Origin: Azolla caroliniana | Taxonomy: Eukaryota > Plantae > Polypodiophyta | Length of the DNA stretch: 64,000 bases | Assembly (NCBI GenBank): GCA_043228905.1 | Contig: JBHGNT010000001.1 | Coordinates: forward strand, 25,544,001-25,608,000 | Direction of reading: 5' to 3' | Shown: positions 3,391 through 46,793 of the stretch, piece after piece | Numbering within the stretch: the first letter of the stretch is position 1 | Layout: each line of letters begins with the position of its first letter | Program-made: the position numbers and the translations under genes | Notes under the pieces: model-generated | Seen by the model: the letters and a program-made list of their open reading frames with translations, nothing else | The model's database searches: none | Told to the model about the DNA's origin: nothing

Positions 3391-4249
3391 ATGGTAAATA
3401 CTCGTAAAACCGCCGCAAAGTTAGGGGGTATGATTGATAATGAGCCGAGATCACCAACAAATCTCGATTCTAATGCAATGGACAAAATGCTTATGAGTCA
3501 CTTGATTTCTCTTCAAGAAACCATAAACAAGCAAGGTGAAGAGATTAGGACGTTAATGAAAGAGAATACTAAGCTCCAAAGTGTTGTCATTGAGAATGAA
3601 AGTCTTAAACAAGTGGTTGCAAAACTTCAAGAAGAGATTCAAGAATGTAAAAGAGCTTCATGAGCACCTTAACAAGATTGAGTTAAAGGAAGCATTAAAA
3701 GAAGAAAAATTGGACACGATGAGGTGGGGTGTAAGTGAGATGAAAAATGTATGTACAACGAAGTCATGGGCCGATGTATGTGGCGGGGATGTGCTATCAA
3801 ACTCATCTAATATGCATGTGATGCATCAAGAGAAGAATATAGAAAGCATAGATGTCCGAGAATTGAAAGAACGTGAACGACGATCAAAGAACATTGACGT
3901 CCGTGGGATCAAAGAAGAGAGTATGGAAACACCCGCATCCCTTGGAAAGGCCATTGGCGAATTTTTTAGCATGCATTATGGGATGTCAGATGTGAATGTA
4001 TATGGGGCACACCGAGTTGGGAAACATGGTGTTACTCGCTCCAGAGAAAGACCTATTGTATGCACAATGACAGATGATACAAAGCGGTGGATCATACTCG
4101 AAAATAGTTGGGTATACCTCAAAGGTACACAATGCTTTGTGAGTGAAGATCATATTATCTCACAACAAAATGCTCGTCGTAAAGCATATGAAGAAAGATT
4201 GAAAAATAAGGTTAAGGATGTGCCTAAAGATGGAAATGTAGGCAAATAG
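3391..4249 (+). pseudogene. LINE ORF1 (coiled coil plus RRM-like), one frameshift near 3660
   Basis: MVNTRK... coiled coil, then RERRSKNIDVRGIKE...AHRVGK...RPIVC...VSEDH motifs typical of LINE ORF1 proteins. Confidence 0.75.
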
Positions 4250-4255
4250 GGACAC

Positions 4256-7200
4256 GTGATCTATGAGACTAACTCACGCCTTTTACGACTATGCTTTTGG
4301 AATTGCAATGGATACCCATGGAATGCGGGATTTGGCATAGAGGAGTTCATCGATGACTCGGATATCACACTTCTTGTTGAAACATGGGAGCATGATACTC
4401 AAAGGATTCAAGTTTTAGGAAACTATAATGTACACTCTTTGATATGGAAGAAAAATCCAAGACAAAGAAGAGGACAAGGAGGGGTGGGGATTGGGAAGGA
4501 AATAGAGAAATATGTGTCAATCATAAAAAATGATGAAAATAAATGCTACATATGGCTCAAAATAGAAACACCTAATGATTTGCCCACTTTTGTAGTCGGA
4601 TGTTACATTCCTCATCAATATTCTAACTTTTATGCTTGTTTGGATAAAGATCAACCGTTTGCCAATCTAGAAGATGATATTGCTTATTTCGAATCCAAAG
4701 GGGAAGTTATTGTCTTTGGTGACATGAATGCTCGCACAAGAAGTTTCCAACTTGATTCACAAGAATCTTTCATGCCACATATCTCAAGGATGCAAGAGGA
4801 TATGCAAATGTATAACCGCTCTTCTAGCGATGAAAAAGATCCGGACCAATTTGGGAAGTTACTCCTACAAATGTGCAATAGTACCGGATTGCTTATTGTA
4901 AGTGGTATTTCCTTTTGGCCCAACACTAATGGTTTTACATGTAGAAAACACAACGGAAATAGTGTGATTGACTATGTGCTACTTTCCGAAGGTATTTTGG
5001 ATCGTATACATAAATTCTCACTTGGTGAATGGACACCGGAATCCGATCATAGGCCTTTATGTATTGATCTCAAGTGTATGCATAGGTTTGATTGTGAGAA
5101 GGAACAACCGCACTTGAGCATGAACCTTAAGCGAGCACCCATGTATTCCAAGATGGTTGAGGATATGTTGCAAATGACGAAGATACAACATGGTGCCACA
5201 CTAGAATGCAAATGGGAAGCTTTCAAGAAAGTCATTCTCTCATGTACAAACAAATGTTTTTCAACCAACCGCACATCTTGGAAATGCACCAAGAAACTTA
5301 GGAAAAAATGGTTTGATAAAGAATGTCGTGAAGCTCGAAAGTGCCTTATGGTTTTGGATGTAGTTAAGGATAAAGAGAATTACCAAAAGCATTTGCATGA
5401 GTATAAAAGGCTTACTCAAAGAAAGAGAAGAATATGCGAAGTTACTCAACAATTTATCCAAACAGAAGAGAAAGCACATGCATGTGCTAAATTTTGGGGA
5501 AATCTAAAGGGAAAACGTGTTGAGAGTTATGGTGACTTAACTCTTCACGACTTGTCTATGCATTGTAAGAATTTATATGAGTTATTTCTTGCCGGAAAGA
5601 TGATGTGTTATGGTTCTCTTTCACATATGCCTCCCTTCTTTACAATTGAAGATATATGCATAGGACTTAAGAAATTGGCCTCTCAAAAGGCAAGCGATCT
5701 TCAATGTATAAAGGCTGAAATGCTCAAATGGATGGGAAAGGAAGCACATATATGGATAAGCAATATGTTTAATGATGCTTTGGAACATGGTATGTCGTAC
5801 GATTGGACTACAAATTGGATCAAACCTTTACATAAAGGTGGCGATATAAATAATGTAAACAACTATCGAACCATCATGGTTGGCTCATTAATGGCAAAAC
5901 TATTTGAATGTATAATGGAATCAAAGATAAGTGTATGGGCTGAAAAAAGTGGTAAGAGAGCTTATGGACAAGCTGGCTTTCGGAAACACCATAGCACCAT
6001 TGATCACCTTATCACCCTTCGAGTATTAATGGAGGAAAGTCACCTTAGAGGTAAAGGTTTATATTGTTGCTTTGTAGACTTCAAGAAAGCTTTTGATATG
6101 GTACCTCGTGAGCATCTTTGGAGGCGAATGGAAGAACTTGAGGTGCCAAGTGAATATATGTTTGCAATTTCACGAATTTATGAGAAGGTTATATGTTGTG
6201 TGCGCATGAGAGATAAACTTTCAGATTTTTTCAAAAGCACTATTGGTGTTAAGCAAGGATGCCCACTCTCACCAACACTATTTGGTCTATGCATTGATGA
6301 ATTGGAAGAAATGGTTACCAAGTTTGCAAAGGAAGAATGTGTTAAAGAAGTTGCCATTAGGAATGTTGTGATTATGCTTTTGCTATATGCAGATGATGTA
6401 GTGCTTTTTGCAAATACTTTAGGAGATGCACAAAAGCTTATGAAGGCATTGGAAAAAATTTGAATGCATACTAAATTAAGTGTCAATAGCTCTAAAACAA
6501 AGATTATGCTTGTGAAGAGCCAAAAAAGAGATAAACCATGCATTATGTACAACAATGAGCCACTTGAATGTGTGGAAAGCTTCAAATATCTTGGCCTTGA
6601 AGTTCCTTCAAATCATAAATGGAATGAATGTGCTACACGTCGCTTAGAGGCAGGCAAGCGAGCATACTATGCATTTGAGAACACATGCAATCTTGGAGAT
6701 ATTAAGTGTTGGGTCCTCAAGAAATATCTTTTCGACACTTCGGTGACACTGGTTCTTCTTTATGGGGTGGAAGTATGGGGCGGTAGCATCCCTAAATCTA
6801 TGTGGAAAGAGTTTGAAAATGTCCAAAAGCATTTTCTTACCAAGTTTCTACAAGTTAAGAAACAAACGCCCTACACCCTCCTCCTCCTTGAGATGGGATC
6901 GCTTCCCATTGAGATCATGGCCATGGAAAGGGTTGTTGAATAAATGCTTAAGGTTTAAAAAAGTCCCTCACATCGACTTCCTAGAATTGTGTGGGAAGCA
7001 GCAAAAAGATCCAAAAGACGCATAAAAGCAAAATTTTGTGTTCTGGTTGGATGCAAGATATAGAAAAATGGTTTGGTAGATGGGATGCGAGACACTTGCT
7101 TCATGATGCATCATTAGATTCCTCTGTAAATGAGGCATTTTTGCAACACCAATGTATCATGACATGGGACAAATGTGGAGGCTCACGCTTCACACATTAT

Positions 7201-7606
7201 ACTACACATGTTGCATCTAACTACAAAACCATATTCTTTGCGGAACGGGGAAATCATACACATCCATACATGTTAGAGCTCATACCGTTATCTGCCATTC
7301 GAACCATTGCTTCCATGCGACTTAGCTCACATGCATTGCAATGTGAAATAGGGCGTTGGGGTACAAGTGATGAGAGTGGTTGGCTATGCACACTTTGCCC
7401 TAAACAAGTTCGTGAGTCTGAGTATCACACTTTGATACAGTGCTCTGCCTTTGATCATATTTGACCATGCTTTCCACATCTCTTCGATCGAGCCCAATCT
7501 TTGCATGAATTCCTCTCACAACCACAATGTGCACCCTCGATTGCAACATTCATTGGTAATGTTCTTGAACATTGAGAGTCACTACTCACTTTCACACGTA
7601 TCACGT
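4256..7606 (+). pseudogene. LINE ORF2: APE endonuclease, reverse transcriptase, C-terminal zinc knuckle; several stops/frameshifts after 6460
   Basis: FWNCNG, VETW, GDMNAR, IDY, SDH (APE); QAGFR, FVDFKKAFD, GVKQGCPLSP, YADD, FKYLG (RT); RLSSHALQCEIGRW...CTLC...ESEYH...C. Confidence 0.9.
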
Positions 7607-8083
7607 GAAATGTAATATTTTTGGTTTCATAGGTCATATTTGACCTCCGAAGACGATAATATAATCTATCTATCTATCTATCTCTTTTCGTCGTAAATCA
7701 ATGTTTGTTATTAAAATAAGATGATAATACAACCCTTGCTATCTTCACTACTTCATAAATAGTGATAGTGCCAAGGAAACCCTCTTAAGTGTTGTAAAAC
7801 TAGATGACATAAGTCCATCTCCTCTTGGGACAATGTCCCCATACAACATAGTTGTGAAAATTGCCAAATCTACTTCCCTTTCATCCTACGAAGTTGTTGT
7901 GTTACCCCATGAAGTCCATCAAATAAGAACCCATTTCTCATGGTCCAATTAAACTACATACCCCAATATCTAAGGTAGTAAAAAACAACCTTATATGATG
8001 GTGTGGGCATAACTTTATCCTCATCAATAAAAATCCACTTATAAGGTGACAAAATATTTCTTGTTATCGATGCCCAAAATATT

Positions 8084-8087
<4 letters not shown>

Positions 8088-8118
<31 letters not shown>
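8088..8118. repeat. (CT)n microsatellite
   Basis: Pure CT run directly before the LINE fragment. Confidence 0.9.
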
Positions 8119-8120
<2 letters not shown>

Positions 8121-9175
8121 GGTCATGTTTAGAGTATTTATGGAAGAGTCGGCTTACAAGGAAAAACACTTTATTGTTGTTGATTTCAAAGCTTTTGATA
8201 CCATACCAGAAAGCGAGCTTTGGAATAGAATGGTAGAGATTGACATGCCATTAGAGTACCAAGTTGTTGTTGCATGCCTATATGAACAATTTAAATGCCA
8301 ACTTAAAATGGATAGTGGATCCTCAAAGCACTTTTTAAGTAACATGGGGGTCAAACAAGGATGTCCACTGTCACCCACACTCTTTCCCTTATGTATTGAT
8401 AAACTAGAAAAAGTGGTGAATAAGGTTGCAAGAGAAGGATTGAATGCCCCCAAATTGATGCAACAACTTATCTTATTGCTTTTATATGCACATGATGTGG
8501 TACTCTTCTCATATGATGTTGATAGTACGCAACATTTACTTGGGGTATTAGAAGAATTTTGCCATAGTAGTGGACTAGCAGTGAATGTAAATAAAACAAA
8601 GATGATGGCAGTGCAAACCATCCAACCCCATCATTACCCTATGCTCACATATAGAGGTGAACATATAAAATTTGTTCAAAGCTTTAAATATCTTGGTATT
8701 GATGTACCCGCCACAAATAAATGGAGTGCATGTTTTGATTCTAGGCTTCAAGCTTGTTGGAAATCGTATTACCTTTTGGAGAGCTAACACAACCAAAATG
8801 ATACTTGTGGATGGGAAGTGAAAGTAATGTTGTTCAATGCCATGGTAACTCCAGTATTGCTTTATGGAGTAGAAGTATGGGGTGGCACCATCTCTCTTAA
8901 TGCAAAGAATGCGATTGAGAAAATTCAAAAGATGTTTTTGAGGAGGCAATTAGGAGTTAAATGCACTACCTCTTACCAAATTATGCTCTTGGAAACAAAT
9001 GTTTGGCCCATAGAGATATTGACACTCCAAAGAGTAAATATATACATTACAAAAGTCAAGAATATGCCGAATCATCAATTACCACATCTTGCTTGGAATG
9101 TTGGATGTTAGTTACAAAAGAATCATAAGAATAAAATTCTCTCATTTGGTTGAGTTGTTGACATAAGAAAATGGC
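8119..9175 (+). mobile_element. 5'-truncated, degenerate RTEX-like LINE fragment (RT)
   Basis: VDFKAFD, GVKQGCPLSPTLF, YAHD (decayed YADD), FKYLG, LLYGVEVWG; paralogous to about 6020-7070. Confidence 0.85.
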
Positions 9176-10130: not shown

Positions 10131-10849
10131 TGTCGTGAAGAAAACCGCCCACAAGAGGAATCGGAGGAACAAGGCGTGGGAAACGGCTCTACGCACACAC
10201 GCGCGCCAAGAAGTACCTAAGGACGAAGTAGGTACATACGAGGATCCTAGGTGGGTAGATTCGGTTGGTATGCAGTTAATGCCAAACGGCCTCTTGACGG
10301 GCTATAAAAGGGAAGAGGAAGAATAGAAGTGGGTATCTCGCGCGGAGAGGACGAAGTGCTGCCGAACCGATTTCGGAGCTTCTCTCTCACCCCTGCTTTC
10401 TCTGTCTTCTGCTCCATCGCGTACCTGTGCAGGTTCCGAGGAGGCTTGCGCTGTTCCGTGGAACGCCCCGAGTGCGTCCTGCAGCACCTCCGACCTGTTT
10501 TCCCTTCCTGTGCGTCGCGACATACAGGGGTCGGCATCTGTTCGCCGCCCTGTTCGTTTTCGTTAGTATCTATTTCGTGCCCCACCGTGGGTTGTAATAC
10601 TTTAGTCTGTTATTTTCTTGCATTCATAAGTACATATCTTTCGTTGTTGCGTCCATCTGCGTCGGCGTTTATTTGTGATCTCTGTTTGTTGGGCCGTGTC
10701 CCTGTGCAATCGTCGGTTCTGCGCAATCGGATCTTCGGTTCTGTGTAATCGGGTCTCTCTCTCTCTTACTCCTCTCTCTCTTGCTCTTCGGTTCAAGACC
10801 CCCGTGGTCCCTCCTCCTTTCTACACGCAAGGGCGTAGTAACCCCGACA
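10131..10849 (+). repeat. 5' LTR (719 bp)
   Basis: TGTCGTGAAG...CCCCGACA; TATA box CTATAAAAG at about 10302; one visible mismatch to the 3' LTR (GGTTCCGAG vs GGTTTCGAG). Confidence 0.97.
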
Positions 10850-10852
10850 TCT

Positions 10853-10870
10853 TGGTGAACCCGACGTGAA
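10853..10870 (+). promoter_or_regulatory. Primer binding site complementary to tRNA-Trp
   Basis: TGGTGAACCCGACGTGAA is the reverse complement of the plant cytosolic tRNA-Trp 3' end (...TTCACGTCGGGTTCACCA), recalled from memory. Confidence 0.85.
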
Positions 10871-10892
10871 AGAGGCGGCAGAAGAGCAGGAA

Positions 10893-13019
10893 ATGAGGGG
10901 GTCGGATCTCGCAGAGGCCATGGCTTCGGCCGTGGATCGGATTGTAAACGCGCGCGAGGGCACCGGTGCCCCCGACAGAGCTATTGAGGCGGTCGTCGGC
11001 ACGATCGGCCGGTTCGATGGGAAGGATGCCACGAAGTATCTGGCGTCCTACGGTGCGGAAATGTTAATGCGGGACATTCCGGAAGACAGGCGTCTTGCCG
11101 GTTTTCCCCGAGTGGCGATGCCGAGCATCCATGCGGAGGTGCTCGAGGTGCGGGCGGAGAGCCGTACCTGGGAGGAGTTCGAAGGTCGGCTCCTGGAAAA
11201 ATACGGACTGGACGACGCGCTCCGGCTTTCGAAGCGAAGCTTCATGGAGTGGGTGGAGTCTCCCGGGAAAGGAAGAAACGCGTCGGCACTCCTCCGGGAG
11301 TTCGAGGAGAACTTCGCGCGCCTTTCGGCGCTTGACAGGATGGTCCTGGATACAAGCCGGGTCCTGCTGTTCGTCAAATCGGTTGACGAGAGGGATCGGA
11401 GTCACGTGGGCGCCCTGCTAGAAACCGAAGATGGGCTGACAGCCGACTGGGCGGCGGTCAAGAGAGCCTGCGGCCGTTTCGACAAACGGCGAGAATGGGA
11501 GGATGACAGAGCAACCGGGTCGGGCTCAGTCGCGGCGAGGAAACTCGAGCCGGCGCAGCCGGTGCGAAGGGAAGAGACTCGGGAGTGGCTGGAATCCGGT
11601 TCAGCTGCGACCGACGTGATCAGAGGCTCGACTGGAGGAGCTGCGTTGGAGGAACTGACGAGGGCGATAAAAGACCTCCAAATCGCACAAGCCCGCAGAG
11701 AAGGCGGAGGACCTGCTCGTGACCGACGGCCGGCGGCAGGGAACAGGTGCATGTGGTGCGACGGGGTCGGCCACATCCGAAAAGACTGCGGCGATTTCGC
11801 AGAGGCGCTGAGGAACCGGGTGGTGTACCTATGGGAAGGCCGGGTTCACGCCAACGACACGAGAAGGGCCCTAAACCGAAACGACGGGCGAGGCGGAATG
11901 AAGAGGTTGATGGAAGAGGCGGCGGCCCGACATGCGGAAACCGTCCACTACTCGGCGTCGGCCGGTATTCGAGTCGGGGGCAACGAGGCCCGAAGAGGAA
12001 GCAAAGCCGGATTCTGGCCGACGGTGCTGGAAGGCCTTGCCGATACGAGGATGAAGAGGGAGGAATCGGACCGTGCGGAGAAACGGGTACGGGAGATGAC
12101 CGGGTGGAGCGACCCGGTCGAGGAGAAGACGGGCTTCGTGAAAGCCGCTTGCCGGAACTACGAGGCTCTGGTAGAAGAGAAGCGGGTGGGGAAACCCGGG
12201 ACGACCGGGCCCTCACAACGATACGAGACCCGGTCCGGGCCACGACGGGACGAAGCCGGCGGGGCCGGTACGCAAGATAAACCCCAGAAGGGCGGGTACC
12301 GTCTGGGGACGGAGATAGAAAGAACCACGGACTTACGAAAGGTCCTGGAGGAACGGATCCTCGACAGCAAGGTGGAGCTGTCGCTACGGGAGGTGCTCGG
12401 AATCGCGAAGAAAGAGTTCCACGACTCCATCGTGGACTTGGTCAAGCGGAAGAGGCTGTCGACGGAGGAGGAACCGGAAAGACCGGTAGAGGTGCGGACG
12501 GCGCACCTGGACGACATGGCGCTGGAAGACGAGTGGGCGGAGAGCCACTATTCGCGGCCACACTGGGCCCGAGCGACCACGGAAACCCCGGTAAAGATCG
12601 GCGATGTCCAGGAACCGGTAGTAGCTTTGGTGGACCACGGATCGGAAATCAACCTGATGTCCATGGACTTCTATAAGAAGGGCAAATGGCCGATCAACAC
12701 CAAGCACGGGTGGAAAATAAGGGCAGCAACGCGCGCCACCGAGGAACTGCACGGGGCCTGTCCGAATGTGCGAGTCAAGATTGGCGACGTCGAGATAGAC
12801 CAGCACTTCTTCGTGCAGGAGACGTCTTCGCATCCGGTCATTCTAGGAGAGCCGTACATCACGGCGGCGCGAATGGAGACCAAAGTGCTGGACAATGGTT
12901 CGGCCTACGCGAGGGTCAAAAGCCAAGACGGGCGCCATTCGGTCCAGTTTCTGACGGTTAGGCCGAACCACGAGCGTAACCGCGACTCCCTCGGTTCCGA
13001 TAACCGAGAGGATTTTTAG
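10893..13019 (+). CDS. gag: Gag-protease polyprotein
   Basis: Open ORF (first ATG 10893); zinc knuckle CMWCDGVGHIRKDC; aspartic protease motifs ALVDHGSEINLM and VILGEPY at the C-terminus. Confidence 0.92.
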   Translation: MRGSDLAEAMASAVDRIVNAREGTGAPDRAIEAVVGTIGRFDGKDATKYLASYGAEMLMRDIPEDRRLAGFPRVAMPSIHAEVLEVRAESRTWEEFEGRLLEKYGLDDALRLSKRSFMEWVESPGKGRNASALLREFEENFARLSALDRMVLDTSRVLLFVKSVDERDRSHVGALLETEDGLTADWAAVKRACGRFDKRREWEDDRATGSGSVAARKLEPAQPVRREETREWLESGSAATDVIRGSTGGAALEELTRAIKDLQIAQARREGGGPARDRRPAAGNRCMWCDGVGHIRKDCGDFAEALRNRVVYLWEGRVHANDTRRALNRNDGRGGMKRLMEEAAARHAETVHYSASAGIRVGGNEARRGSKAGFWPTVLEGLADTRMKREESDRAEKRVREMTGWSDPVEEKTGFVKAACRNYEALVEEKRVGKPGTTGPSQRYETRSGPRRDEAGGAGTQDKPQKGGYRLGTEIERTTDLRKVLEERILDSKVELSLREVLGIAKKEFHDSIVDLVKRKRLSTEEEPERPVEVRTAHLDDMALEDEWAESHYSRPHWARATTETPVKIGDVQEPVVALVDHGSEINLMSMDFYKKGKWPINTKHGWKIRAATRATEELHGACPNVRVKIGDVEIDQHFFVQETSSHPVILGEPYITAARMETKVLDNGSAYARVKSQDGRHSVQFLTVRPNHERNRDSLGSDNREDF

Positions 13020-13075
13020 AGAGGGCTGCCAAGGCGTGGGGCCGCGACAGTCCGGACACCCCGGGAAAACCCCAC
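13010..13075 (+). promoter_or_regulatory. Predicted -1 programmed ribosomal frameshift signal (slippery heptamer plus pseudoknot)
   Basis: G GAT TTT immediately before TAG; the -1 frame is open into pol; stem GGGCTG/CAGTCC, loop GTGGGG complementary to downstream CCCCAC. Confidence 0.82.
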
Positions 13076-16000
13076 ACCTGTACGATAAAACCGAAGGAAC
13101 CTTGTACCATAGGTAGGGGATTTTTGTTCTCCGACAGCGGAGCGTGTACGATAGTCGGCATCGGCGGCCGAGAGAAGACAAAGGCGGAGGGGAGACTTCG
13201 AGCGTGCGGAGTTCTCGGCCCTGACGAGGAAATCAACGGAGCCGTGGAGGCGGTCTCATTCGACGACACCTTGGGAATGCTGGGAAAGGTAGTCGAAGAA
13301 GGCCTTAACGAAGACCGGACGATACCGGTGTGTTCCGAGGAGATGTACGAAGTCATCGCGGACTTCGGTCGAGGGCTCGAGTCAGTTCGGACGGCCCACG
13401 TAAGCACCAAGTACAAGACTGTGGACCGGAAGGTAAGGCCAGTCGCGGCACCCTTACCGGAGGACAGCGCGTCGAGAATCAAAGGGGTTGCATCGGACCC
13501 TAGTCTACGAGATCCGGCCTGCATAGGGCACACCTTCACCGACGAGACGCTCCGAGAGCTCAAAATCGGTGGGGGCGGGTTCCTACTGCCGGCGGAGGAA
13601 GACCGGTTTCGGAGAATGCTCGGAAGGCACGGGAAAGCCTTCGCATTCTCGCCGGAGGAAATCGGGTGCGTTGACCCGACGATCGTGGAGCCGATGGTGA
13701 TATTCACGGTACCGCATGTACCATGGAACCTCAAGCCAATCCCGGTTCCGAGAGCTCACATCCCGAAGTTGATGGAGCTGCTGAGGCAGAAAGTTGATAT
13801 GGGAATTCTCGAGCCGTCGAGCGCCCCATATTCGAATCGATGGTTTACCGTACCGAAGAAAAACGGTTCGTTGCGCTTCATCCAGGACCTGCAGCCGGTC
13901 AATCGAGTGACCATTCGGAACGCAGGGATCGGACCGACCATAGACGAGTTCGCGGAGGCCTTCGCCGGAAGGTCAATTTACTCGGTCGGGGATCTATACT
14001 CAGGGTACGACCAGTTCCAGCTAGCCGTGGAGAGCAGAGACATTACGACGATGCGAACTCCCCTCGGCCTAGTTCGGATGTGTACACTGCCGCAAGGAGG
14101 GACCAACTCGGTGGCCCACATGGTGAATGCGATGAACAAGGTTCTGAGGGACTGTATCCCGGACGTCACCATGCCGTTTCTGGACGACATCCCGATCAAG
14201 GGATGCCCGGTGGAAGAAAAGGACGAGACGATCGGGCCGGACGGATGCCGGCGATTCGTGGTAACGCACATCGACGACTGCGAGAAGGTGCTGCAAAGGC
14301 TAGAGGATGCGAGGCTCACCTTCTCGGGGGAGAAGTCAGCATTCGGGCAGTCGGAAATCATGGTGGTCGGACATCTATGTGGACCATATGGCCGGAAACC
14401 GTCTCCGGCAAAGATAGAAGCCGTCTCCGCGATGAAGCCCGACTGCAGCTCGGTCACGGAAGTACGGAGATTCCTGGGGGCATGCGCGTTCTACCACATA
14501 TGGATCCCGCATTACGCACACGTCGCGGAGCCACTGTACGGGTTGCTGAAAAAGGGGCGAAGGTTCGAATGGCTAGACGAGCACGCGGAATCGGTCCGGA
14601 AGCTGAAAGAGGCCCTTGCAGCGGCACCGGCACTCCGGAAGGCGGTATACGGGAAGGGTACCCCGGTATTCATAACGGTGGATACCAGTCCGACCGGGAT
14701 CGGATGGGTCGTGAACCAGGAAGACGAGGACGGCAATCGGTTTCCGATCCGATTCGGCGCGAAAGTCCTCAGTGAACGGCAGCGAGGATACGCCCAGGTT
14801 AAACGCGAACTCTGGGGTATTGTTTCGGCGGTTAAGGCCGACAAAGACTACCTGATAGGGACAGCAGTGATCATCGAGACGGATTGCCTGCCGATTCTCG
14901 GTATGGTTTCCGGATGCGCGACTCCGGACCTGGCGATGCTCAGGTGGATAGCGTACATCAAGTCCCTGGACCCGGAAATACGACACATTTCCGGGAAAGA
15001 CAACGCCATGGCCGACATGCTTTCGAGGGCGAGGTTCGACGACGAGGACGGCATGGTTTCGGAAGACGAAGAAGTCGGCGTGGATTTCTTCGAGGCGGCA
15101 TACATAACGACCGACGGGATGGGCACTCCGGCGCTTAACGAGTTCGACGCGAGCAAGTACGACGGGGAGTGGCTGCAGATCGGCGGGTTTTTGAAGACAA
15201 TGACGCCTGATGCGTCATGGACGAAGGACGAGGCCAACCGGATCCGGAAGAAAGCATATCGATTCTTTCTCCGGGATGGCTACCTATGGAAGCACCCGAA
15301 GAAGAGGGACGGCGCTCCGCTCCGGGTGGTGGCGATGAAGGAAGAACAGGAGGAGCTGCTGACGGCCTACCACGACAGCCCTTGGGCTGGACACCGTGGA
15401 ACGTGGGCGACATTTGAGAAGCTGAAGGGGAAGTACTGGTGGCCGGGATTGTACCGGGACGTGCATCGGTTCGTGTCGACTTGCGAGAGTTGTCAGATGC
15501 ACTCGATAGTCCGACACCGGGATGGGCTTCGCCCTACGTACCCTCCGACTATCCACTTCAAATGGATGGTAGATCTAGTGACGATGCCGATGGGGGTAGG
15601 ACAGATGCGGTATCTGGTCCTAGCGCGGGAAGACCTGACGAACCAGGTGGAAGGCCGAGCCCTTCAGAACAAGACGACCGCGGCCGTGTGTCGGTTCCTG
15701 ATCGAGGACGTGATATGCCGGTACGGGTGCGTCGGGAAGATCGTGGCTGACCGGGGGGAGTTGGACGCCGAGGAAGCCGCGGAGCTGTTCGATCGGCTGG
15801 GAGTCAAACTCTCGCTCACCACTGCGTACAACCCGGAGGCGAATGGAAAGGTGGAGCGCGGACACGGGCCGATCGTTAAGGCGCTGGTTCGGGCATGCGG
15901 AGGCCAAGTCGGTAACTGGCCGCGACTTCTACCTTATGCTTTGTGGGCCGACCGGACTACGCACAGTTCGGTAACCGGGTACATGCCGACAGAGCTCATG

Positions 16001-16507
16001 TTCGGCCAGAAGCCGATCATGCCGATGGAACGAACAATCTCCTCATGGGCAACGGTCGACTGGAGGGACGAGATGAGCCGGGAGGAGTTGTTGGCAGCGC
16101 GTATACGACAACTCGAACGGAGACCGGAGGACGTGGAGACGGCTGCAGAAAGGATCCGAGTGGCGAGGATAAAGAACAAAGCCAGGTTCGACCGAACGCA
16201 CCGACTCCGACCGAAGAAGATCGAAGAAGGTGACTGGGTGCTCGTCTACGACAGCAGCCTCGACAACCAGCACCGAGCAACGCGGAAGTTCGCACGGAGA
16301 TGGTTCGGGCCGTACACGGTACAGAGCGCCAACGACAACGGGACGTATCATCTGGCGGAGCTCGACGGTACGAGAATAGCGATACCCGTGGCCGGGAAGA
16401 GGATCAAAGCTTTCAAGAAGCGGCACGACGACGAACCCGACCCGATTCTCCTGGACAGCAGCGACGACCGATCCGAGGCCGAGGAAGGGCCGGCAGGCGA
16501 AGAGTAA
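13010..16507 (+). CDS. pol: Pol (RT, RNase H, integrase) in the -1 frame relative to gag
   Basis: LRFIQDLQPVN, DLYSGYDQ, LPQG, FLDD (RT); VDTS...KRELWG...ETDC...NAMADMLSR (RNase H); H-x6-H...CESC, VDL...DRGE...NGKVER, WFGPY (integrase); no chromodomain. Confidence 0.95.
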   Translation, partial: GFLERAAKAWGRDSPDTPGKPHTCTIKPKEPCTIGRGFLFSDSGACTIVGIGGREKTKAEGRLRACGVLGPDEEINGAVEAVSFDDTLGMLGKVVEEGLNEDRTIPVCSEEMYEVIADFGRGLESVRTAHVSTKYKTVDRKVRPVAAPLPEDSASRIKGVASDPSLRDPACIGHTFTDETLRELKIGGGGFLLPAEEDRFRRMLGRHGKAFAFSPEEIGCVDPTIVEPMVIFTVPHVPWNLKPIPVPRAHIPKLMELLRQKVDMGILEPSSAPYSNRWFTVPKKNGSLRFIQDLQPVNRVTIRNAGIGPTIDEFAEAFAGRSIYSVGDLYSGYDQFQLAVESRDITTMRTPLGLVRMCTLPQGGTNSVAHMVNAMNKVLRDCIPDVTMPFLDDIPIKGCPVEEKDETIGPDGCRRFVVTHIDDCEKVLQRLEDARLTFSGEKSAFGQSEIMVVGHLCGPYGRKPSPAKIEAVSAMKPDCSSVTEVRRFLGACAFYHIWIPHYAHVAEPLYGLLKKGRRFEWLDEHAESVRKLKEALAAAPALRKAVYGKGTPVFITVDTSPTGIGWVVNQEDEDGNRFPIRFGAKVLSERQRGYAQVKRELWGIVSAVKADKDYLIGTAVIIETDCLPILGMVSGCATPDLAMLRWIAYIKSLDPEIRHISGKDNAMADMLSRARFDDEDGMVSEDEEVGVDFFEAAYITTDGMGTPALNEFDASKYDGEWLQIGGFLKTMTPDASWTKDEANRIRKKAYRFFLRDGYLWKHPKKRDGAPLRVVAMKEEQEELLTAYHDSPWAGHRGTWATFEKLKGKYWWPGLYRDVHRFVSTCESCQMHSIVRHRDGLRPTYPPTIHFKWMVDLVTMPMGVGQMRYLVLAREDLTNQVEGRALQNKTTAAVCRFLIEDVICRYGCVGKIVADRGELDAEEAAELFDRLGVKLSLTTAYNPEANGKVERGHGPIVKALVRACGGQVGNWPRLLPYALWADRTTHSSVTGYMPTELMFGQKPIMPMERTISSWATVDWRDEMSREELLAARIRQLERRPEDVETAAERIRVARIKNKARFDRTHRLRPKKIEEGDWVLVYDSSLDNQHRATRKFARRWFGPYTVQSANDNGTYHLAELDGTRIAIPVAGKRIKAFKKRHDDEPDPILLDSSDDRSEAEEGPAGEE

Positions 16508-16564
16508 AGGCGGGCCGGTTTTCTCCGTGCCAACTTATTTTGGCGCATGCCGGTGGATGCGCGG

Positions 16565-16579
16565 TTAGGTGGGGGCGGA
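16565..16579 (+). promoter_or_regulatory. Polypurine tract
   Basis: TTAGGTGGGGGCGGA directly before the 3' LTR. Confidence 0.8.
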
Positions 16580-17298
16580 TGTCGTGAAGAAAACCGCCCA
16601 CAAGAGGAATCGGAGGAACAAGGCGTGGGAAACGGCTCTACGCACACACGCGCGCCAAGAAGTACCTAAGGACGAAGTAGGTACATACGAGGATCCTAGG
16701 TGGGTAGATTCGGTTGGTATGCAGTTAATGCCAAACGGCCTCTTGACGGGCTATAAAAGGGAAGAGGAAGAATAGAAGTGGGTATCTCGCGCGGAGAGGA
16801 CGAAGTGCTGCCGAACCGATTTCGGAGCTTCTCTCTCACCCCTGCTTTCTCTGTCTTCTGCTCCATCGCGTACCTGTGCAGGTTTCGAGGAGGCTTGCGC
16901 TGTTCCGTGGAACGCCCCGAGTGCGTCCTGCAGCACCTCCGACCTGTTTTCCCTTCCTGTGCGTCGCGACATACAGGGGTCGGCATCTGTTCGCCGCCCT
17001 GTTCGTTTTCGTTAGTATCTATTTCGTGCCCCACCGTGGGTTGTAATACTTTAGTCTGTTATTTTCTTGCATTCATAAGTACATATCTTTCGTTGTTGCG
17101 TCCATCTGCGTCGGCGTTTATTTGTGATCTCTGTTTGTTGGGCCGTGTCCCTGTGCAATCGTCGGTTCTGCGCAATCGGATCTTCGGTTCTGTGTAATCG
17201 GGTCTCTCTCTCTCTTACTCCTCTCTCTCTTGCTCTTCGGTTCAAGACCCCCGTGGTCCCTCCTCCTTTCTACACGCAAGGGCGTAGTAACCCCGACA
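16580..17298 (+). repeat. 3' LTR (719 bp)
   Basis: Near-identical copy of 10131-10849. Confidence 0.97.
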
Positions 17299-21480: not shown

Positions 21481-21693
21481 TATGTTTCCAATCATTGGTT
21501 ATCAAGTTCATGATAGTGTTGGAGATGAGTCCGTTAGTGCAGAAATAGAAACAACATCTAGGAGTTAAGGAACAACAAGTTGATGATAACAAAATCAAAT
21601 GATCAGATTGAAACAAAGATTAACAATACAACTCAACAAGGATAAGGAACAAGACAGATGGAGAGGGATAGAGAGGCATAGATTGTAACTGTA

Positions 21694-24600
21694 TGTTGGG
21701 ATTACGGTCCCTTCGGATGGGATGGTCGGATATCGGAGATGAATGCCGACAAGCCCGGTTTCGGTTTCGGATCCGGATGACGAAGACCCCAGTTTCGGTA
21801 CCGGATGACGAATGTACCCGGAGAGCGATCCGGATGCAGGGACATATCCGTGAATATGTTCGCTATGGGCCCCTGAGGCCACAGTTGTAAATAGCCCAAA
21901 GTCATATAAGTATAAATATGACTTAGGGCAAACAGTTTTGTTGTTGCTTCTCATTTTTTCTGTTTTTCCACTTTAGAGGAGTGAAGAGGGAGCAGCCGTG
22001 AGAGAGAGAGAGATAGAGCGCGAGAGAGGAAGAGGTAGACGCCTCTGTGTATTTCCGCCGCCTGTGGCGAGGACAGCGAGCTCAAGGTCGTCGCCTTGGA
22101 GCTCGTCATTGTATACTTCTCTGTATAGCGTTGTTTGGAGTCTTGTACTCCCGTGGTTTTTCCCGTCTGGGTTTTCCACGTTAATCCCTGTGTACTCGCG
22201 CTTCTTTTGTTTCTCGTGTGGTTCCTATTTTCTGCTCCATTGATCCGCGATTACTCGGTTGTGGCCGAGCGAAGAAGGTGAATCGAAGCGTTGATTCCCA
22301 ACAAACTGGTATCAGAGCGACTGTTGCAGAAAATGGAAGGCGGCGGCAGCGGGCAGCCGGGGATGATGGTGCTGAATGCACAGAATTACGCCGACTGGAA
22401 GATCAAGATGGAGGATCTTCTGATTGTTCGGGACCTGTACGAACCGATTGACAGGTCGGAAATACCGAAGGGGGTACTTGAGTTGGAGTGGAAGCTCCTG
22501 AACCGGAAAGCCGTAGCGACGATCCGACAATATGTCGATGTAAGCGTCCTACAACATGTGGCGAACGACACCAACGCATATGAGATGTGGAAGAAGCTGT
22601 CGGGCCTCTACGAAAGGAAGAATGCGTTGAACCGGACCTCCCTGATGAGGAAGATAGTGAATCTCAAGTACCGGGACGGCGAGAGTATGGTGGAACACGT
22701 AAGCACGTTCATGGGATTCGTGAACCAGCTTGCGGCGATCAAGTTCCCGCTGGAGGATGCAATGCAAGCCATCATTCTGATGTGTACATTGCCGGAAAGC
22801 TGGGAAAACTTGGTGGTAACTCTCAGCACCTCCTGCACCGAAGATAACTTGTCCTTACAAACGGTAAAGACAAGTATTTTGAATGAAGAAGCGCGTCGGA
22901 GAGATAAGGAACCGGCCTCCGACCCGAAGATGTTGTTTACCGAATCGGATCGGGGAAGACAATGGAACCGGAGTCCGCAAAGACGGGAGAAGTCGGGGAC
23001 CCGGTCGCAGTCAAGAGGAAGGCCCACATGCTTCCACTGTGGGAAACCGGGGCACTTCCGAAAGAATTGTCGGCATTACCGAAAAGACAACGGAGCCGAC
23101 GACACCGATTCGAAGAAGTCACCGGAGAGAAACGGTGCATACCGGGGAGTCACGGACCGGAGAGGTTCGGATCGGCGAGGGCAGGACCGGAAAGGAACGA
23201 CGGCACTCGCGGCAAGTGAGGAAGAAATCATGCTCATCACCGAAGAAGGTGAGCTAAACATTGCCGGCGATGAGACGACCTGGGTGGTCGATTCCGGAGC
23301 ATCGTTCCACCTGACCCCGGAGAGAAGATACTTCTCATCCTACACAGCCGGCGAGCATGGCTGTGTTCGGATGGGAAACGAAGGTACGTGCCGGATTGCC
23401 GGCATAGGAGACGTGTGGTTGACAACCCCGACCGGATGCAAAATGCTGCTGAAGGATGTCCGACACGTTCCGGAGGTTCGATTGAACCTGATTTCGGCCG
23501 GGAGGCTAGACGATGAAGGCTACACAGGTACCATCCGGAACGGCGTAATGAAGTTCAGCAAGGGGAGCCTGATAGTGGCTCGGGCCCGGAAAGACAACAC
23601 ACTGTACCTGATGAATGCCCGGTTATGTCCGGAAGAGCTGAATGTGGCAGCCGACACTGCCGGTGAGCTGTGGCACAAAAGACTGTGCCACATGAGTGAG
23701 AAGGGGATGAAGAGGCTTGCAGAAGACAACCTTATCCCAGTGAAGCATGTGCACCTGGAGAAGTGCACCGATTGCCTGGCCGGTAAGCAGAACCGAACTT
23801 CATTCCACTCAAGGCCACCGACGAGACGTAGCGCACCATTGGAGTTGGTGCACACTGATGTGTGTCAGGTAGAAACGAAGTCACATGGCGGAGCCCAGTA
23901 CTTCGTAACATTCATCGATGATCATAGCCGAAAACTGTGGACGGCACCGATGAAGACAAAGGACCAAGTGTTGTGCGTCTTCAAAGAACTCCACGCGAGA
24001 GTGGAAAGGGAATCCGGCAAGAAGCTGAAAGCGATACGAGCGGATAACGGAGGGGAATACCGGGGGCAGTTCCAGGAGTACTGTCGCTCGAAGGGAATCC
24101 GACTCGAGTTTACTGTGCCGAAGACGCCGGAACTGAACGGGCTGGCCGAGAGGATGAACCGGACCATAATGGAGAGGGTTCGAAGTATGCTGGCGCATGC
24201 GAAATTACCCAAGGGGTTTTGGGCTGAGGCAATGTCGACGGCGACATATGTGATAAACCGATCACCCTCAGTACCTTTGGACGGAGACACGCCGCAGAGA
24301 GTGTGGACCGGTAGGGAAGTATCCTACCGGCATCTGAAGGTGTTCGGGTGTCTCGCATACGTGCACGTGGTGAAGGACCGGAGAGGAAAGCTAGATCCGA
24401 AGACCCGGCCATGCATATTCCTCGGTTACGGCGACGACGAGTTCGGCTACCGAGTATGGGACCCGGTCGACAAGAAGATATTCAGGAGTCGAGATATCGT
24501 CTTTATGGAGGACAAGACACTCGCCGACTGGGAGTCGGAGAAGAAGATGAAGAGCTCCAAGTCGACTGGTGAGGATAAACTCTACGAGGAGCAGTCCCGA

Positions 24601-27029
24601 CCGGCAAGGGACCGGTTAGCACTCGAGGATCCGGCCGAAGACGGTGAAGAAACAGAACCGGCCGAAGAAGATGAAAATGATACCGGAACCGGCCCCGATC
24701 CCGAAATGGATTCGGATGAAGAAGAAGAATCGGGAGAACCGGTTACCGAAGCTCCGGAACGGAGATATCCTCTAAGAGAGAGAAGGGCCCCCCGGAGATT
24801 TCCGGAACCAGAGCACGTGCTGCTAACCGACGAGGGGGAGCCGGAGAGCTTTGAAGAAGCAAAGCATGACACCCAGAGCCGCAGGTGGTTGAGTGCCATG
24901 CAGGACGAGATGGATTCCCTGCATGAGAACCACACATATGAACTTGTGGAGTTGCCGAAAGGAAAACGGGCACTCCGTAACAAGTGGGTGTTCAAGCTGA
25001 CACCGGGAGATGCCGGAAACCCCCCGAGATACAAAGCCAGGATCGTGGTGAAGGGGTTTCAGCAGAAGAAGGGCGTCGACTTCGACGAGATATTTGCCCT
25101 GGTAGTGAAGATGACCTCCATCCGGACGGTGCTGAGCATAGCGGCAAGCATGGACCTCGAGGTAGAACAGATGGACGTGAAGACGGCATTCCTTCACGGT
25201 GACCTCGAAGAAGAGATCTACATGCAGCAACCGGAAGGATTCGAGAAGAAAGGGAAGGAGCACCTGGTATGCCGGTTGAAGAAGAGCCTTTACGGACTGA
25301 AGCAGGCTCCCCGGCAATGGTACCGGAAGTTCGACTCCTTCATGACCGACGAAGGGTACCTCAAAACGCAGTCCGACCACTGCGTGTTTGTGAAGAAGTT
25401 CGAAGGAGGAGACTCTCTAATACTCCTCCTGTACGTGGACGACATGTTGATCGTCGGACGGGACCAGGTCAAGATACGGATGCTGAAGAAGGCTCTTCAC
25501 CGAACCTTCTCAATGAAGGACCTGGGTCCGGCGAGGCAAATACTAGGGATGCACATCATCCGGGACCGGAAGAAGAAGCAGTTGTGGCTGTCACAGGAGA
25601 AGTACGTGACGAAGGTGCTTCACCGGTTCAACATGTCGGAAGCAAGACCGGTCGGATCGACCCTCCCGACAAACTGCAAGCTGTCCAGCAAGCAAAGTCC
25701 CAAGACAAAGGCTGAAAAGGAGGATATGATGAAAGTGCCGTATGCCTCAGCCGTCGGGAGCTTGATGTACGCCATGGTGTGTACGAGACCGGACATCGGA
25801 TATGCAGTCGGAGTGGTGAGCCGGTACATGAGCAATCCCGGCAAAGAGCATTGGAACGCGGCCAAGTGGATACTCCGATACCTGAAGGGCACAGCAAACG
25901 TGTGCCTCCGATTCGGCTCCGGAAAGCCCGAACTCGACGGCTTTACCGATTCGGATATGTCGGCTGATGCAGATACCAGCCGGTCCACATCAGGGTATGT
26001 GATGACGTATGCAGGGGGAGCTGTTTCATGGCAGTCGAGGCTGCAGAAGACGGTTGCGCTGTCAACCACGGAGGCGGAGTACATGGCGGCTGTTGAAGCC
26101 GGCAAGGAAATAATATGGATGAAGGACTTCATTAGAGAGCTCGGTATCCGACAGGAGGAGTACCGACTCTACTGCGACAGTCAGAGTGCAATCCACCTTG
26201 CGAAGAACGCGGCCTATCACTCCCGGACGAAGCACATCCAGCGAAGATATCACTGGATCCGGGAAAGGATAGAAGACAAGGAGTTCGTGCTGACGAAGAT
26301 CCACACGGACGAGAACGGGTCGGATATGCTGACCAAGGTGCTCACACCCGACAAGCTGGAAGCATGCCGGAAGAGGATCGGATTGGAGAGACATCCCATG
26401 CCGAAGTGAAGGGGGAGTTTGTTGGGATTACGGTCCCTTCGGATGGGATGGTCGGATATCGGAGATGAATGCCGACAAGCCCGGTTTCGGTTTCGGATCC
26501 GGATGACGAAGACCCCAGTTTCGGTACCGGATGACGAATGTACCCGGAGAGCGATCCGGATGCAGGGACATATCCGTGAATATGTTCGCTATGGGCCCCT
26601 GAGGCCACAGTTGTAAATAGCCCAAAGTCATATAAGTATAAATATGACTTAGGGCAAACAGTTTTGTTGTTGCTTCTCATTTTTTCTGTTTTTCCACTTT
26701 AGAGGAGTGAAGAGGGAGCAGCCGTGAGAGAGAGAGAGATAGAGCGCGAGAGAGGAAGAGGTAGACGCCTCTGTGTATTTCCGCCGCCTGTGGCGAGGAC
26801 AGCGAGCTCAAGGTCGTCGCCTTGGAGCTCGTCATTGTATACTTCTCTGTATAGCGTTGTTTGGAGTCTTGTACTCCCGTGGTTTTTCCCGTCTGGGTTT
26901 TCCACGTTAATCCCTGTGTACTCGCGCTTCTTTTGTTTCTCGTGTGGTTCCTATTTTCTGCTCCATTGATCCGCGATTACTCGGTTGTGGCCGAGCGAAG
27001 AAGGTGAATCGAAGCGTTGATTCCCAACA
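21694..27029 (+). mobile_element. Intact young Ty1/Copia LTR retrotransposon (Tnt1/Tork-like)
   Basis: 610-bp LTRs 21694-22303 and 26420-27029 with no visible difference; TSD CTGTA; PBS TGGTATCAGAGC (tRNA-iMet, 22307-22318); PPT GAAGGGGGAG before the 3' LTR. Confidence 0.98.
22333..26409 (+). CDS. Copia Gag-Pol polyprotein (Gag, PR, IN, RT, RNase H), 1358 aa
   Basis: CFHCGKPGHFRKNC, WVVDSGAS, LWHKRLCH, DNGGEY...ER, YKARIV, QMDVKTAFL, LYVDDML, TDSD...EAEY...DSQSA; no stops. Confidence 0.97.
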   Translation: MEGGGSGQPGMMVLNAQNYADWKIKMEDLLIVRDLYEPIDRSEIPKGVLELEWKLLNRKAVATIRQYVDVSVLQHVANDTNAYEMWKKLSGLYERKNALNRTSLMRKIVNLKYRDGESMVEHVSTFMGFVNQLAAIKFPLEDAMQAIILMCTLPESWENLVVTLSTSCTEDNLSLQTVKTSILNEEARRRDKEPASDPKMLFTESDRGRQWNRSPQRREKSGTRSQSRGRPTCFHCGKPGHFRKNCRHYRKDNGADDTDSKKSPERNGAYRGVTDRRGSDRRGQDRKGTTALAASEEEIMLITEEGELNIAGDETTWVVDSGASFHLTPERRYFSSYTAGEHGCVRMGNEGTCRIAGIGDVWLTTPTGCKMLLKDVRHVPEVRLNLISAGRLDDEGYTGTIRNGVMKFSKGSLIVARARKDNTLYLMNARLCPEELNVAADTAGELWHKRLCHMSEKGMKRLAEDNLIPVKHVHLEKCTDCLAGKQNRTSFHSRPPTRRSAPLELVHTDVCQVETKSHGGAQYFVTFIDDHSRKLWTAPMKTKDQVLCVFKELHARVERESGKKLKAIRADNGGEYRGQFQEYCRSKGIRLEFTVPKTPELNGLAERMNRTIMERVRSMLAHAKLPKGFWAEAMSTATYVINRSPSVPLDGDTPQRVWTGREVSYRHLKVFGCLAYVHVVKDRRGKLDPKTRPCIFLGYGDDEFGYRVWDPVDKKIFRSRDIVFMEDKTLADWESEKKMKSSKSTGEDKLYEEQSRPARDRLALEDPAEDGEETEPAEEDENDTGTGPDPEMDSDEEEESGEPVTEAPERRYPLRERRAPRRFPEPEHVLLTDEGEPESFEEAKHDTQSRRWLSAMQDEMDSLHENHTYELVELPKGKRALRNKWVFKLTPGDAGNPPRYKARIVVKGFQQKKGVDFDEIFALVVKMTSIRTVLSIAASMDLEVEQMDVKTAFLHGDLEEEIYMQQPEGFEKKGKEHLVCRLKKSLYGLKQAPRQWYRKFDSFMTDEGYLKTQSDHCVFVKKFEGGDSLILLLYVDDMLIVGRDQVKIRMLKKALHRTFSMKDLGPARQILGMHIIRDRKKKQLWLSQEKYVTKVLHRFNMSEARPVGSTLPTNCKLSSKQSPKTKAEKEDMMKVPYASAVGSLMYAMVCTRPDIGYAVGVVSRYMSNPGKEHWNAAKWILRYLKGTANVCLRFGSGKPELDGFTDSDMSADADTSRSTSGYVMTYAGGAVSWQSRLQKTVALSTTEAEYMAAVEAGKEIIWMKDFIRELGIRQEEYRLYCDSQSAIHLAKNAAYHSRTKHIQRRYHWIRERIEDKEFVLTKIHTDENGSDMLTKVLTPDKLEACRKRIGLERHPMPK

Positions 27030-34745: not shown

Positions 34746-35190
34746 ATTGTGAGCTAGGCCTTGGGGTCAAGGGACATTTGCAATATGACATCAATGGATA
34801 AGATGTCAATGATCATAGAAAGAGGCCCATTTGGGAGATATAATAGACGTAGACAGGAAAGACATCTATAGCAGCTTCATGCACAAAGCAGATACTTCAA
34901 CATTGGGATCCTTTGCATGTCAGGGTGCATGTCAAACCCTGAGCACGACGTAAACATGATGAATAAAGCAAGCCGGCATTGAAAAGAGATATGCCCGCGT
35001 GTTTGGGTGCCCAATGTGTAATGATATAAGTACATACATAGATATATATGCTTGGTCAGGGGTTCAATACTCACCCAGACTCACTAGAGGGTTCAATACT
35101 CTCCCACACTCTTCCATATGGGTGACACTCACACACAGAGCCAGAGAGAAAACACTCAGAATCCACACTCTTCATGACTTAGCCCTAATC

Positions 35191-45486: not shown

Positions 45487-46620
45487 TTAACAAGACACAT
45501 CGGCGTCCTCGAGTTTGAGGCCATAGCGTTTTGTCTCGAAGGACCAACGAAGCGTGCCAGACATACATGACAACATGGTCGACAAGTACACCTCAAGCTT
45601 TGGCTCCCTTCCCATCAGCTCCTCGTTCTCGCGGATCGCATCCACCACTTGCACGCAACGGGCATCCACTCGCTGTATCATTTCCGCCACAATTCCGAGC
45701 GCATCTTGCAATGAGGCGGCCGCGCCACTCTTGTACACAATGCACGGGAGGTTGAAGTAGTCTCCAGCCGAGGTCTCCACACGGAACGAGACTATGTCGT
45801 TGCACATGCACATGTAGTCTATGGCAAGGTTGCGGAGCTCGTGGACGAGCGAATGGAGATGGATGGGATCGTCGTCCAGACACAACACATAGAGAAGGAG
45901 CTCAAACCCTAGGAAGAAGCCAGAGGACACCCGGCGGATACCCATATATTGATTCACAGTACAACTCGTGCCGCCTCTATCATGGTCCACAAATGCTGGA
46001 TCGTTGGTGGGGTGAAGGCACACGGCTTGCAGGTGATCTTTCATGGCTGATATGAACCGGATCCGTGCCTGCGGGGTGAGCTCACAGGACATCTCCTTCC
46101 AAAGCTCCCCTAGAGCATCTAGCATGGTGAGCCTCCGCGGGTCGAGACCAATGGGAACTGCTTCAGCAAGGCTCCGTGATGCGCATTCCCGTGGCTCCTG
46201 GAGCTTGAAGTTCACAGAATTCGCCCATGTGGCCACGGCGGATCGAGGATCACCATCATGACACCCCATGTGGTCACTCAATTCAGCGCATGACACTGCG
46301 GTAGCGGTATCTACCACATCGTCGGCCAGGGTGAGCCATGCGATGAATTTGGTGGCAGTCATGAGGCGCGGGAGGTCTTCGGCTTCCGGGAAGAGGCGGC
46401 AAACATAGAGGGGGAGGAGGCAGTCCGATAGGAACTGCCGGGACTTGGGCTGGACCAAGTTAAGGATCCACGGCTCGCACTCTACCCTCACTCTCTCATA
46501 CTGCGGGTGCAATTTCACAGGGAACGAGCATTGCATCGACGGCAACGTAAAATGAGAGCCAATGCTCGGTGGAACTTGTGTGGAGAATACCGTGATCCTA
46601 GCATTAGCGTTGTTGGCCAT
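45487..46620 (-). CDS. MTPSL: Microbial terpene synthase-like protein (class I terpene cyclase, alpha-domain only), intronless, 377 aa
   Basis: DDxxD motif LADDVVD, effector Arg in YMGIRRVSSG, NSE motif NDIVSFRVE, NLP, C-terminal WSFETKRY; no N-terminal plant TPS beta-domain; TATA (CTATATAAA) at about 46727-46719 favours ATG 46620. Confidence 0.92.
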   Translation of the reverse strand: MANNANARITVFSTQVPPSIGSHFTLPSMQCSFPVKLHPQYERVRVECEPWILNLVQPKSRQFLSDCLLPLYVCRLFPEAEDLPRLMTATKFIAWLTLADDVVDTATAVSCAELSDHMGCHDGDPRSAVATWANSVNFKLQEPRECASRSLAEAVPIGLDPRRLTMLDALGELWKEMSCELTPQARIRFISAMKDHLQAVCLHPTNDPAFVDHDRGGTSCTVNQYMGIRRVSSGFFLGFELLLYVLCLDDDPIHLHSLVHELRNLAIDYMCMCNDIVSFRVETSAGDYFNLPCIVYKSGAAASLQDALGIVAEMIQRVDARCVQVVDAIRENEELMGREPKLEVYLSTMLSCMSGTLRWSFETKRYGLKLEDADVSC

Positions 46621-46793
46621 TGGCGTTGGTCTTGGACTTGGACTTGGGACTTGGTGTTGGTGTTGGGTGTGGGTGCAGAGCAATGGGTAGATTGTGTTCC
46701 CATGCACATTATGTTGAGTTTATATAGATTTTTGCATTTGTAGTCACCCTTCTCATCATTATTGCATTTATTGCTTTCAGTTGGTTTGGTTTA

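Follow-up and report, generated by a model that had tools for sequence, protein, structure and literature searches.

The window, a 64,000-nucleotide stretch of the Azolla caroliniana genome, holds three copies of a Ty3/gypsy LTR retrotransposon together with several other elements and genes. A broken LINE with endonuclease and reverse transcriptase (RT) lies at 3560–8787 (+). The Copia element at 21691–26716 (+) has an open polyprotein of 1375 codons and LTRs that are identical over the 300 bases compared, and a PPR gene of ~15 repeats occupies 34963–37542 (+). The sole domain of a 410-codon ORF at 45487–46719 (−) is Terpene_syn_C_2, and we take this ORF to resemble terpene synthases of the microbial type known from seed-free plants. 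A 975-codon ORF rich in charged residues (57359–60286, +), which has no Pfam match, is located between the second and third copies, on the strand opposite to theirs.

Copy 1 (10131–17298, +) is a complete element with 719-bp LTRs (10131–10849 and 16580–17298) that differ at one base, and its target-site duplication is CCGT. The primer-binding site (10853–10869, +) is the complement of the 3′ end of tRNA-Trp(CCA). ORF1 (10842–13019, +; first ATG at 10893) is 725 codons in length from stop to stop and terminates in Asp-Phe-stop. ORF2 (pol; 13004–16507, +) is in the −1 frame and 1167 codons in length, with its earliest in-frame ATG 260 nt beyond the ORF1 stop. Because ORF1 has a CCHC knuckle (Gag), DUF4100, and an aspartic protease-like region, and ORF2 has a linker, RT, RNase H, and integrase, the junction between them is the protease/RT boundary, as distinct from a gag/protease boundary. 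The protease was called from a weak Pfam match in copy 2 together with a motif. Its putative active site in the window ORF1 (about residues 598–606 of P0001) is D-H-G and not D-T/S-G, and D-H-G is also what the −2 subfamily described below has there.

The other two copies are decayed. Of these, copy 2 (52038–57354, −) belongs to a second subfamily and has a broken ORF1 and a 3′ LTR remnant from 52048; its pol is interrupted by a 223-bp tandem duplication (53814–54259). Copy 3 (60751–64000, −) is a truncated relative of copy 1, and both of its ORFs contain stops.

We assign all three copies to Phygy, a lineage of Ty3/gypsy, from its listed features and from homologs. Phygy is a non-chromovirus lineage for which the accessible text of Neumann et al. 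2019 (PMC6317226) lists a 4-bp NCGN target duplication and a tRNA-Trp primer. The CCGT duplication of copy 1 fits the first of these, and the complement of the primer-binding site falls inside tRNA-Trp(CCA) genes at all three loci scanned. The order of Pfam domains is that of Gypsy elements (RT, RNase H, and integrase in sequence), and, as in Phygy, the Pfam matches include neither a chromodomain nor an extra RNase H. The short compact body and the Physcomitrium homologs are further points of likeness to Phygy as far as it is described in PMC6317226; copy 1, at 7.2 kb, is slightly under the 7.7–10 kb given there. Named ORF1 homologs are proteins of Physcomitrium patens, Riccia sorocarpa, and Adiantum nelumboides. 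The same survey, in its accessible part, calls the clade Physcomitrella-specific and tabulates its ORF organization as "not determined", whereas the ORF1 homologs extend to a liverwort and a fern, and the Azolla elements are arranged as Gag-PR and RT-RH-INT with a conserved recoding signal.

The tRNA-Trp 3′ motif has 62 matches genome-wide, with clusters at C8:17.80–17.82 Mb (~1.2 kb spacing) and C16:4.99–5.11 Mb. The three loci confirmed as tRNA genes lie outside these clusters.

The junction between protease and reverse transcriptase

In these Phygy-lineage elements, Gag-protease and RT-RNase H-integrase lie in separate frames. At the junction of copy 1, the slippery heptamer G_GAU_UUU (13010–13016) is followed by UAG (13017–13019), which is part of a 6-nt spacer (13017–13022). 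Predicted pseudoknot stem 1 (13023–13053) pairs 13023–13030 with 13046–13053, and predicted stem 2 (13036–13075) pairs 13036–13041 with 13070–13075. The signal of copy 2 (55776–55838, −) has its heptamer at 55838–55832 and stop at 55831–55829, with predicted stem 1 formed by 55826–55818 and 55802–55794 and predicted stem 2 by 55811–55807 and 55780–55776. In copy 3 (signal at 61795–61859, −), the heptamer is at 61859–61853, stem 1 would pair 61846–61839 with 61823–61816, the loop reads TGGAG, and CCCCA is at 61799–61795.

An earlier note on this DNA had placed a G GAT TTT TAG site, a stem, and TGGGG or TGGAG with a downstream CCCCA in each of three diverged copies, and all of these are where it put them; the copies are 62–74% identical in pairwise comparison across 600 nt at the junction. 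Its statement that all three end ORF1 at the site applies to the site itself in each copy, but fails for the ORF1 end of copy 3, in which a TGA precedes the slippery site by two codons. Likewise, pol was said to be open in the −1 frame in copies 1 and 2, which is so throughout the 1167 codons of copy 1 and for 616 codons of copy 2, after which that frame is broken.

The heptamer is of the X_XXY_YYZ type, is in the ORF1 frame, and falls within the overlap with the −1 ORF. Its arrangement extends far beyond the window: thousands of copies in this retrotransposon lineage found in seed-free plants show a conserved slippery site followed by a predicted RNA pseudoknot. On first look, ~6,200 candidate ORF1 ends were found in the 523-Mb genome. 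A signature of heptamer, stem, and CCCCA has 2,852 exact matches there versus none for the reversed control, the matches being copies of a few families and not independent events. Among top-scoring loci of three subfamilies in this genome, a choice that biases toward young copies, the −1 frame holds pol, and this frame reads open back beyond the end of ORF1, at 27 of 30, 27 of 30, and 23 of 25. The 80 metagenome loci comprise 29 that are −1 and open, 41 without a usable junction, 7 that are broken, and 3 that are −2/+1. The heptamer is kept (G_GAU_UUU, twice G_GAU_UUC) while the stop varies: it may be UAG, UGA, or UAA, or may follow only after several further codons. At 13 of 14 −1 loci checked, the first AUG of the pol frame is 47–326 nt beyond the ORF1 stop.

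The same pattern is visible in protein records. Sixty-four of 120 ORF1 homologs end in Asp-Phe-stop and five in Gly/Asn-Phe-stop, another 26 have a dipeptide of the Asp-Phe, Gly-Phe, or Asn-Phe type 1–8 residues before the end, and 19 are overlong, many of these 19 being predicted gene models. The Asp-Phe-type endings include Riccia, Physcomitrium, and Adiantum records, and are shared by 32 of 72 more distant proteins aligned through the junction. For liverwort and fern, it is these protein ends that point to a frameshift signal. Searches of the Azolla genome from two distant homologs returned subfamilies already seen and no others, and no relative was found in the viral contig set searched.

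Structure of the −1 signal

The stem that the earlier note had placed about 5–6 nt downstream was refined to an 8-bp register that starts 6 nt past the heptamer, within the 5–9 nt at which the 3′ structure of canonical −1 programmed ribosomal frameshifting (PRF) is found. Stem 1 was evaluated in a gap-free alignment of 24 diverged representatives, from which copy 3 was excluded as decayed. Of its 192 cells, 97.4% are paired, as compared with 22–44% in slid controls, and double changes occur at four of the eight pairs, which bears out the claim that pairing is kept despite divergence. RNAalifold recovers stem 1 unprompted. Copy 1 has a single C-A mismatch in the 8-bp register. In the −1 cassette the frames, the site, the spacer, their conservation, and the compensated stem 1 are direct observations.

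The register of stem 2 varies among subfamilies because the length of loop 3 changes, and this stem was therefore counted in subsets of rows picked by register. It is 93% paired in a 9-row subset, with double changes at three of five pairs, and 97% paired in a 10-row subset, with a double change at one of six; these changes stem from about three lineages. Cognate loop and tail sequences pair better than permuted partners (p = 0.016, 12 rows). Neither the shuffle nor the permutation control takes relatedness into account, and the N-terminus of Pol is encoded here as well, so that some of the conservation at the junction may be protein-driven. For these reasons we regard the predicted pseudoknot as well supported in stem 1 and, with less support, as probable in stem 2.

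A real −1 frameshift might instead be driven by the stem 1 hairpin alone, with the complementarity of loop and tail being fortuitous or simply following from the Trp-Gly and Pro codons. Stem 2 is just 4–6 bp in the −1 lineages, and the best loop-tail helix beats shuffles at p < 0.05 in five of 25 single sequences, the other 20 being non-significant. Set against this are the double changes in both subsets, the retention of pairing across differing encoded residues (W, R, Q, E, and K), and the growth of stem 2 to 8–9 bp in the −2 clade, and we consider the hairpin-only explanation unlikely.

Single-sequence folding of the region is ordinary (z from −1.9 to +0.3, with a program unable to fold pseudoknots), and support for the structure thus comes from comparison and not from stability. 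A search of four junction loci against Rfam gave nothing at the site and two weak matches away from it (E of 1.6 and 3.8). RNAalifold also predicts an inner GCG/CGC stem within the loop, which is broken in 4–7 of the 24 rows and competes with stem 2.

We estimate a probability of roughly 0.87 that −1 frameshifting takes place between protease and RT in the copies of the window, as judged from these sequence comparisons. Ribosomes would pause at the predicted pseudoknot 6 nt past G_GAU_UUU, and the tRNAs on GAU and UUU would likely slip back by one base to GGA and UUU, right before the ORF1 stop. With a minority of ribosomes slipping, a Gag-PR-Pol fusion would be made. That stem 2 folds, that ribosomes slip, and with what efficiency they do so are parts of the model. 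The pseudoknot-stimulated −1 shift proposed in the earlier note is accordingly supported by the frames, heptamer, spacer, compensated stem 1, and ORF1 termini, and is less firm in stem 2.

The earlier note had named splicing as one route to pol that would speak against a frameshift, and splicing does set the Gag/Pol ratio in plant Copia elements, according to the accessible part of PMC5580714. The junction of the −2 subfamily is also acceptor-like, being U-rich with CAG|G. The junction of copy 1 is crossed at a depth of ~8–21 by polyA reads of a relative (three runs), in which no splice joint or indel is listed at a 20% reporting threshold for indels. These reads are mostly 90–99% alike, map on both strands, and could include DNA, and therefore constitute weak evidence against splicing. 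The AG ahead of the site is unconserved in the −1 lineages, and no shared in-frame donor was found within 700 nt in three −2-clade loci by a rough motif filter. Transcriptional slippage, the other way in which pol might be reached without the ribosome, would have to act on U-runs just 5–6 long. We consider it very unlikely that either process, in place of a ribosomal shift, gives access to pol.

A subfamily with pol in the −2/+1 frame

Two metagenome loci (L101 and L105) have both ORFs open, with pol offset by two bases and the sequence CAG_GUU_UUU_(G/U)AC_UAG at the junction. Together with loci L141–L208 of the Azolla genome, all outside the window, they constitute a subfamily whose signature has 86 exact matches in this genome versus none for the control. 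Pol is in the −2/+1 frame and open across the junction in 24 of 30 top-scoring loci. Overlapping frames are kept in seven of eight elements fetched whole, six of these having a pol of 1164–1181 codons, and LTR matches of 100% occur in three of the eight. The NCGN duplications match in five of seven elements, with one mismatched and one without a 3′ end. A contig from another run spans the junction gap-free. In polyA data, the subfamily has 29 reads over three runs and none at the junction. Loci L239 and L240 are deletion derivatives in which ORF1 is joined directly to the terminal part of pol and to the 3′ LTR. Two further candidate members, L020 and L134, were rejected as local deletions or mis-anchoring.

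Comparison of L105 with a copy from the Azolla genome in the same register gave a dN of 0.068 and a dS of 1.15 for pol (dN/dS ~0.06), and comparison of ORF1 gave a dN of 0.11 and a dS of 1.5. The low dN at such a dS indicates that the −2 arrangement is old and that Pol has been kept under selection. Trees of ORF1 and pol place the −2 copies in a monophyletic clade with −1 lineages as neighbors; we call the clade derived because every other lineage is −1, the trees being only midpoint-rooted. Of 133 new distant proteins, 72 align through the junction, and none of these 72 has a further Val-Phe-X-stop end, which gives no indication that a −2 arrangement arose a second time.

The junction of the clade reads AG_GUU_UUU, one base shorter in the ORF1 frame, and the spacer is 5 nt versus 6 nt. 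The predicted pseudoknot of 10 + 8 bp is 98% paired in three rows, with no double changes. The −1 frame shuts within 0–5 codons, and the downstream ORF is in the −2 frame relative to a site of the RG_GUU_UUU form. This is the −2 site of arteriviruses, at which A-site re-pairing takes place, according to the accessible parts of PMC5644247 and PMC11818727. Shifting by −2 is favored at spacers 1–2 nt shorter than those for −1, with stem-loops and pseudoknots, as reported in the accessible part of PMC3458567.

The best reading of this subfamily is a pseudoknot-driven −2 slip, which we regard as somewhat probable from the sequences. The same pseudoknot device would here drive a slip of two bases at AG_GUU_UUU. 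Speaking against it is the poor P-site re-pairing of GUU on AGG. In addition, two of the 30 copies (L163 and L164) read CAA_GAU_UUU, for which −2 re-pairing is poor, and one of them keeps both frames intact.

The same pol frame could be reached by a +1 shift, in which the P-site Phe tRNA would move forward. However, UUU_G is present in 78 of the 86 matches and makes forward re-pairing imperfect, while the Phe tRNA would re-pair perfectly after a −2 slip; the site is also a known −2 motif, and the 3′ structure of the −1 relatives is kept at a shorter spacer. We judge a +1 shift improbable. A separate Pol, translated from an AUG shortly upstream of the ORF1 stop through reinitiation or internal initiation, is slightly more doubtful still. 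Pol-frame AUGs do occur 17–77 nt upstream of this stop (at −26, −17, or −77) in five of five loci checked, but their position is unconserved and one copy with an intact pol is without a near AUG. The U-run, the spacer, and both stems are retained across a dS above 1, which also argues against initiation at these AUGs, and a Pol made without fusion would have to enter particles in some other way.

With the −2 slip as the preferred reading, we lean toward the view that this clade turned a pseudoknot-stimulated −1 shift into a −2 shift, through the loss of one base at the site, a spacer shortened from 6 nt to 5 nt, and a longer pseudoknot, and that it reached the arterivirus motif independently. 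The intermediate G_GGU_UUU is rare, with five matches, of which four are −1-type and one is a decayed −2-clade copy reading GG_GUU_UUU.

Relation to known recoding systems

The −1 signal has a heptamer, a spacer, and a 3′ structure in common with the canonical −1 PRF cassette. It differs in being in a plant retrotransposon, in having 2–4 nt between the stems, and in having a stop that usually follows the heptamer directly. As in the Azolla elements, the protease of alpharetroviruses is on the Gag side of the frameshift. A GGA first triplet is common to the Azolla site and that of PEMV RNA 2. G_GAU_UUU followed by a stop is presumably the shift site of red clover necrotic mosaic virus, and elements and dianthoviruses alike would use this heptamer on plant ribosomes with a stop close behind. 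The likeness to dianthoviruses put forward in the earlier note stands for this shift site and goes no further, because their stimulator is a long-range pairing of an apical loop with an internal loop (accessible part of PMC5009743), whereas the predicted Azolla structure is local and lies within 60 nt, in an analysis that covered pairing over 75 nt.

The −2 subfamily has an 8-nt site identical to that of arterivirus nsp2TF −2 PRF, as given in the accessible parts of PMC5644247, PMC11818727, and bioRxiv 2021.11.17.468997. In most of its copies the −1 frame stops at once, a likeness to arterivirus nsp2N as described there. In arteriviruses, according to the same sources, a complex of nsp1-beta and PCBP acts on a C-rich motif 10 nt downstream with no RNA structure, whereas the −2 subfamily has a predicted 10-bp stem, part of the pseudoknot, that starts 5 nt downstream. 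The C-rich motif (CCCANCUCC) is absent at its position 10 nt downstream in three aligned −2-clade rows. Because this motif is absent and a 10-bp stem is predicted, the subfamily may work like the arterivirus site but is a different system. Its product would be the essential polymerase, unlike arterivirus nsp2TF.

Among other plant elements, Ogre and Retand are also split after the protease, but by way of a spacer or an in-frame stop, and Tcn1 and Selgy also have overlapping frames, but are split before the protease (PMC6317226 Additional file 5). Neither a slippery site nor a pseudoknot is given for Ogre, Retand, Tcn1, Selgy, or SIRE in the accessible parts of PMC6317226 and this file. According to reviews, most plant LTR retrotransposons have a single ORF or are regulated by splicing (accessible parts of PMC5009743 and PMC5580714). 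The 2016 review (PMC5009743), in its accessible part, reports of a 2003 survey that its plant cases are +1-frame only, with no plant element having pol in −1, and lists phage Mu, arteriviruses, and Trichomonas vaginalis virus 1 as −2 cases. The signal is undescribed in the accessible parts of PMC6317226, PMC5009743, PMC7466625, PMC2864245, PMC12786077, PMC5580714, and PMC8708638. More broadly, searches of open full-text literature turned up neither the −1 signal nor any −2 frameshifting by a retrotransposon. We regard the −1 part, which is well supported as real, as a form of a known recoding mechanism in a plant lineage for which that literature yielded no earlier description.

Frameshifting by −1 likely fills the "not determined" ORF entry of Phygy, for a lineage with moss, liverwort, and fern homologs, and explains truncated or spliced gene models of these ORFs. 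The −2 reading, if true, would provide a natural −2 signal driven by RNA structure and needed for an essential polymerase, and, given the −1 sister cassettes that share its genome, would put the mRNA-tension model to a natural test. The −1 and −2 subfamilies are matched natural cassettes that differ in site, spacer, and stem length, and what sets −1 versus −2 slippage is therefore directly testable.
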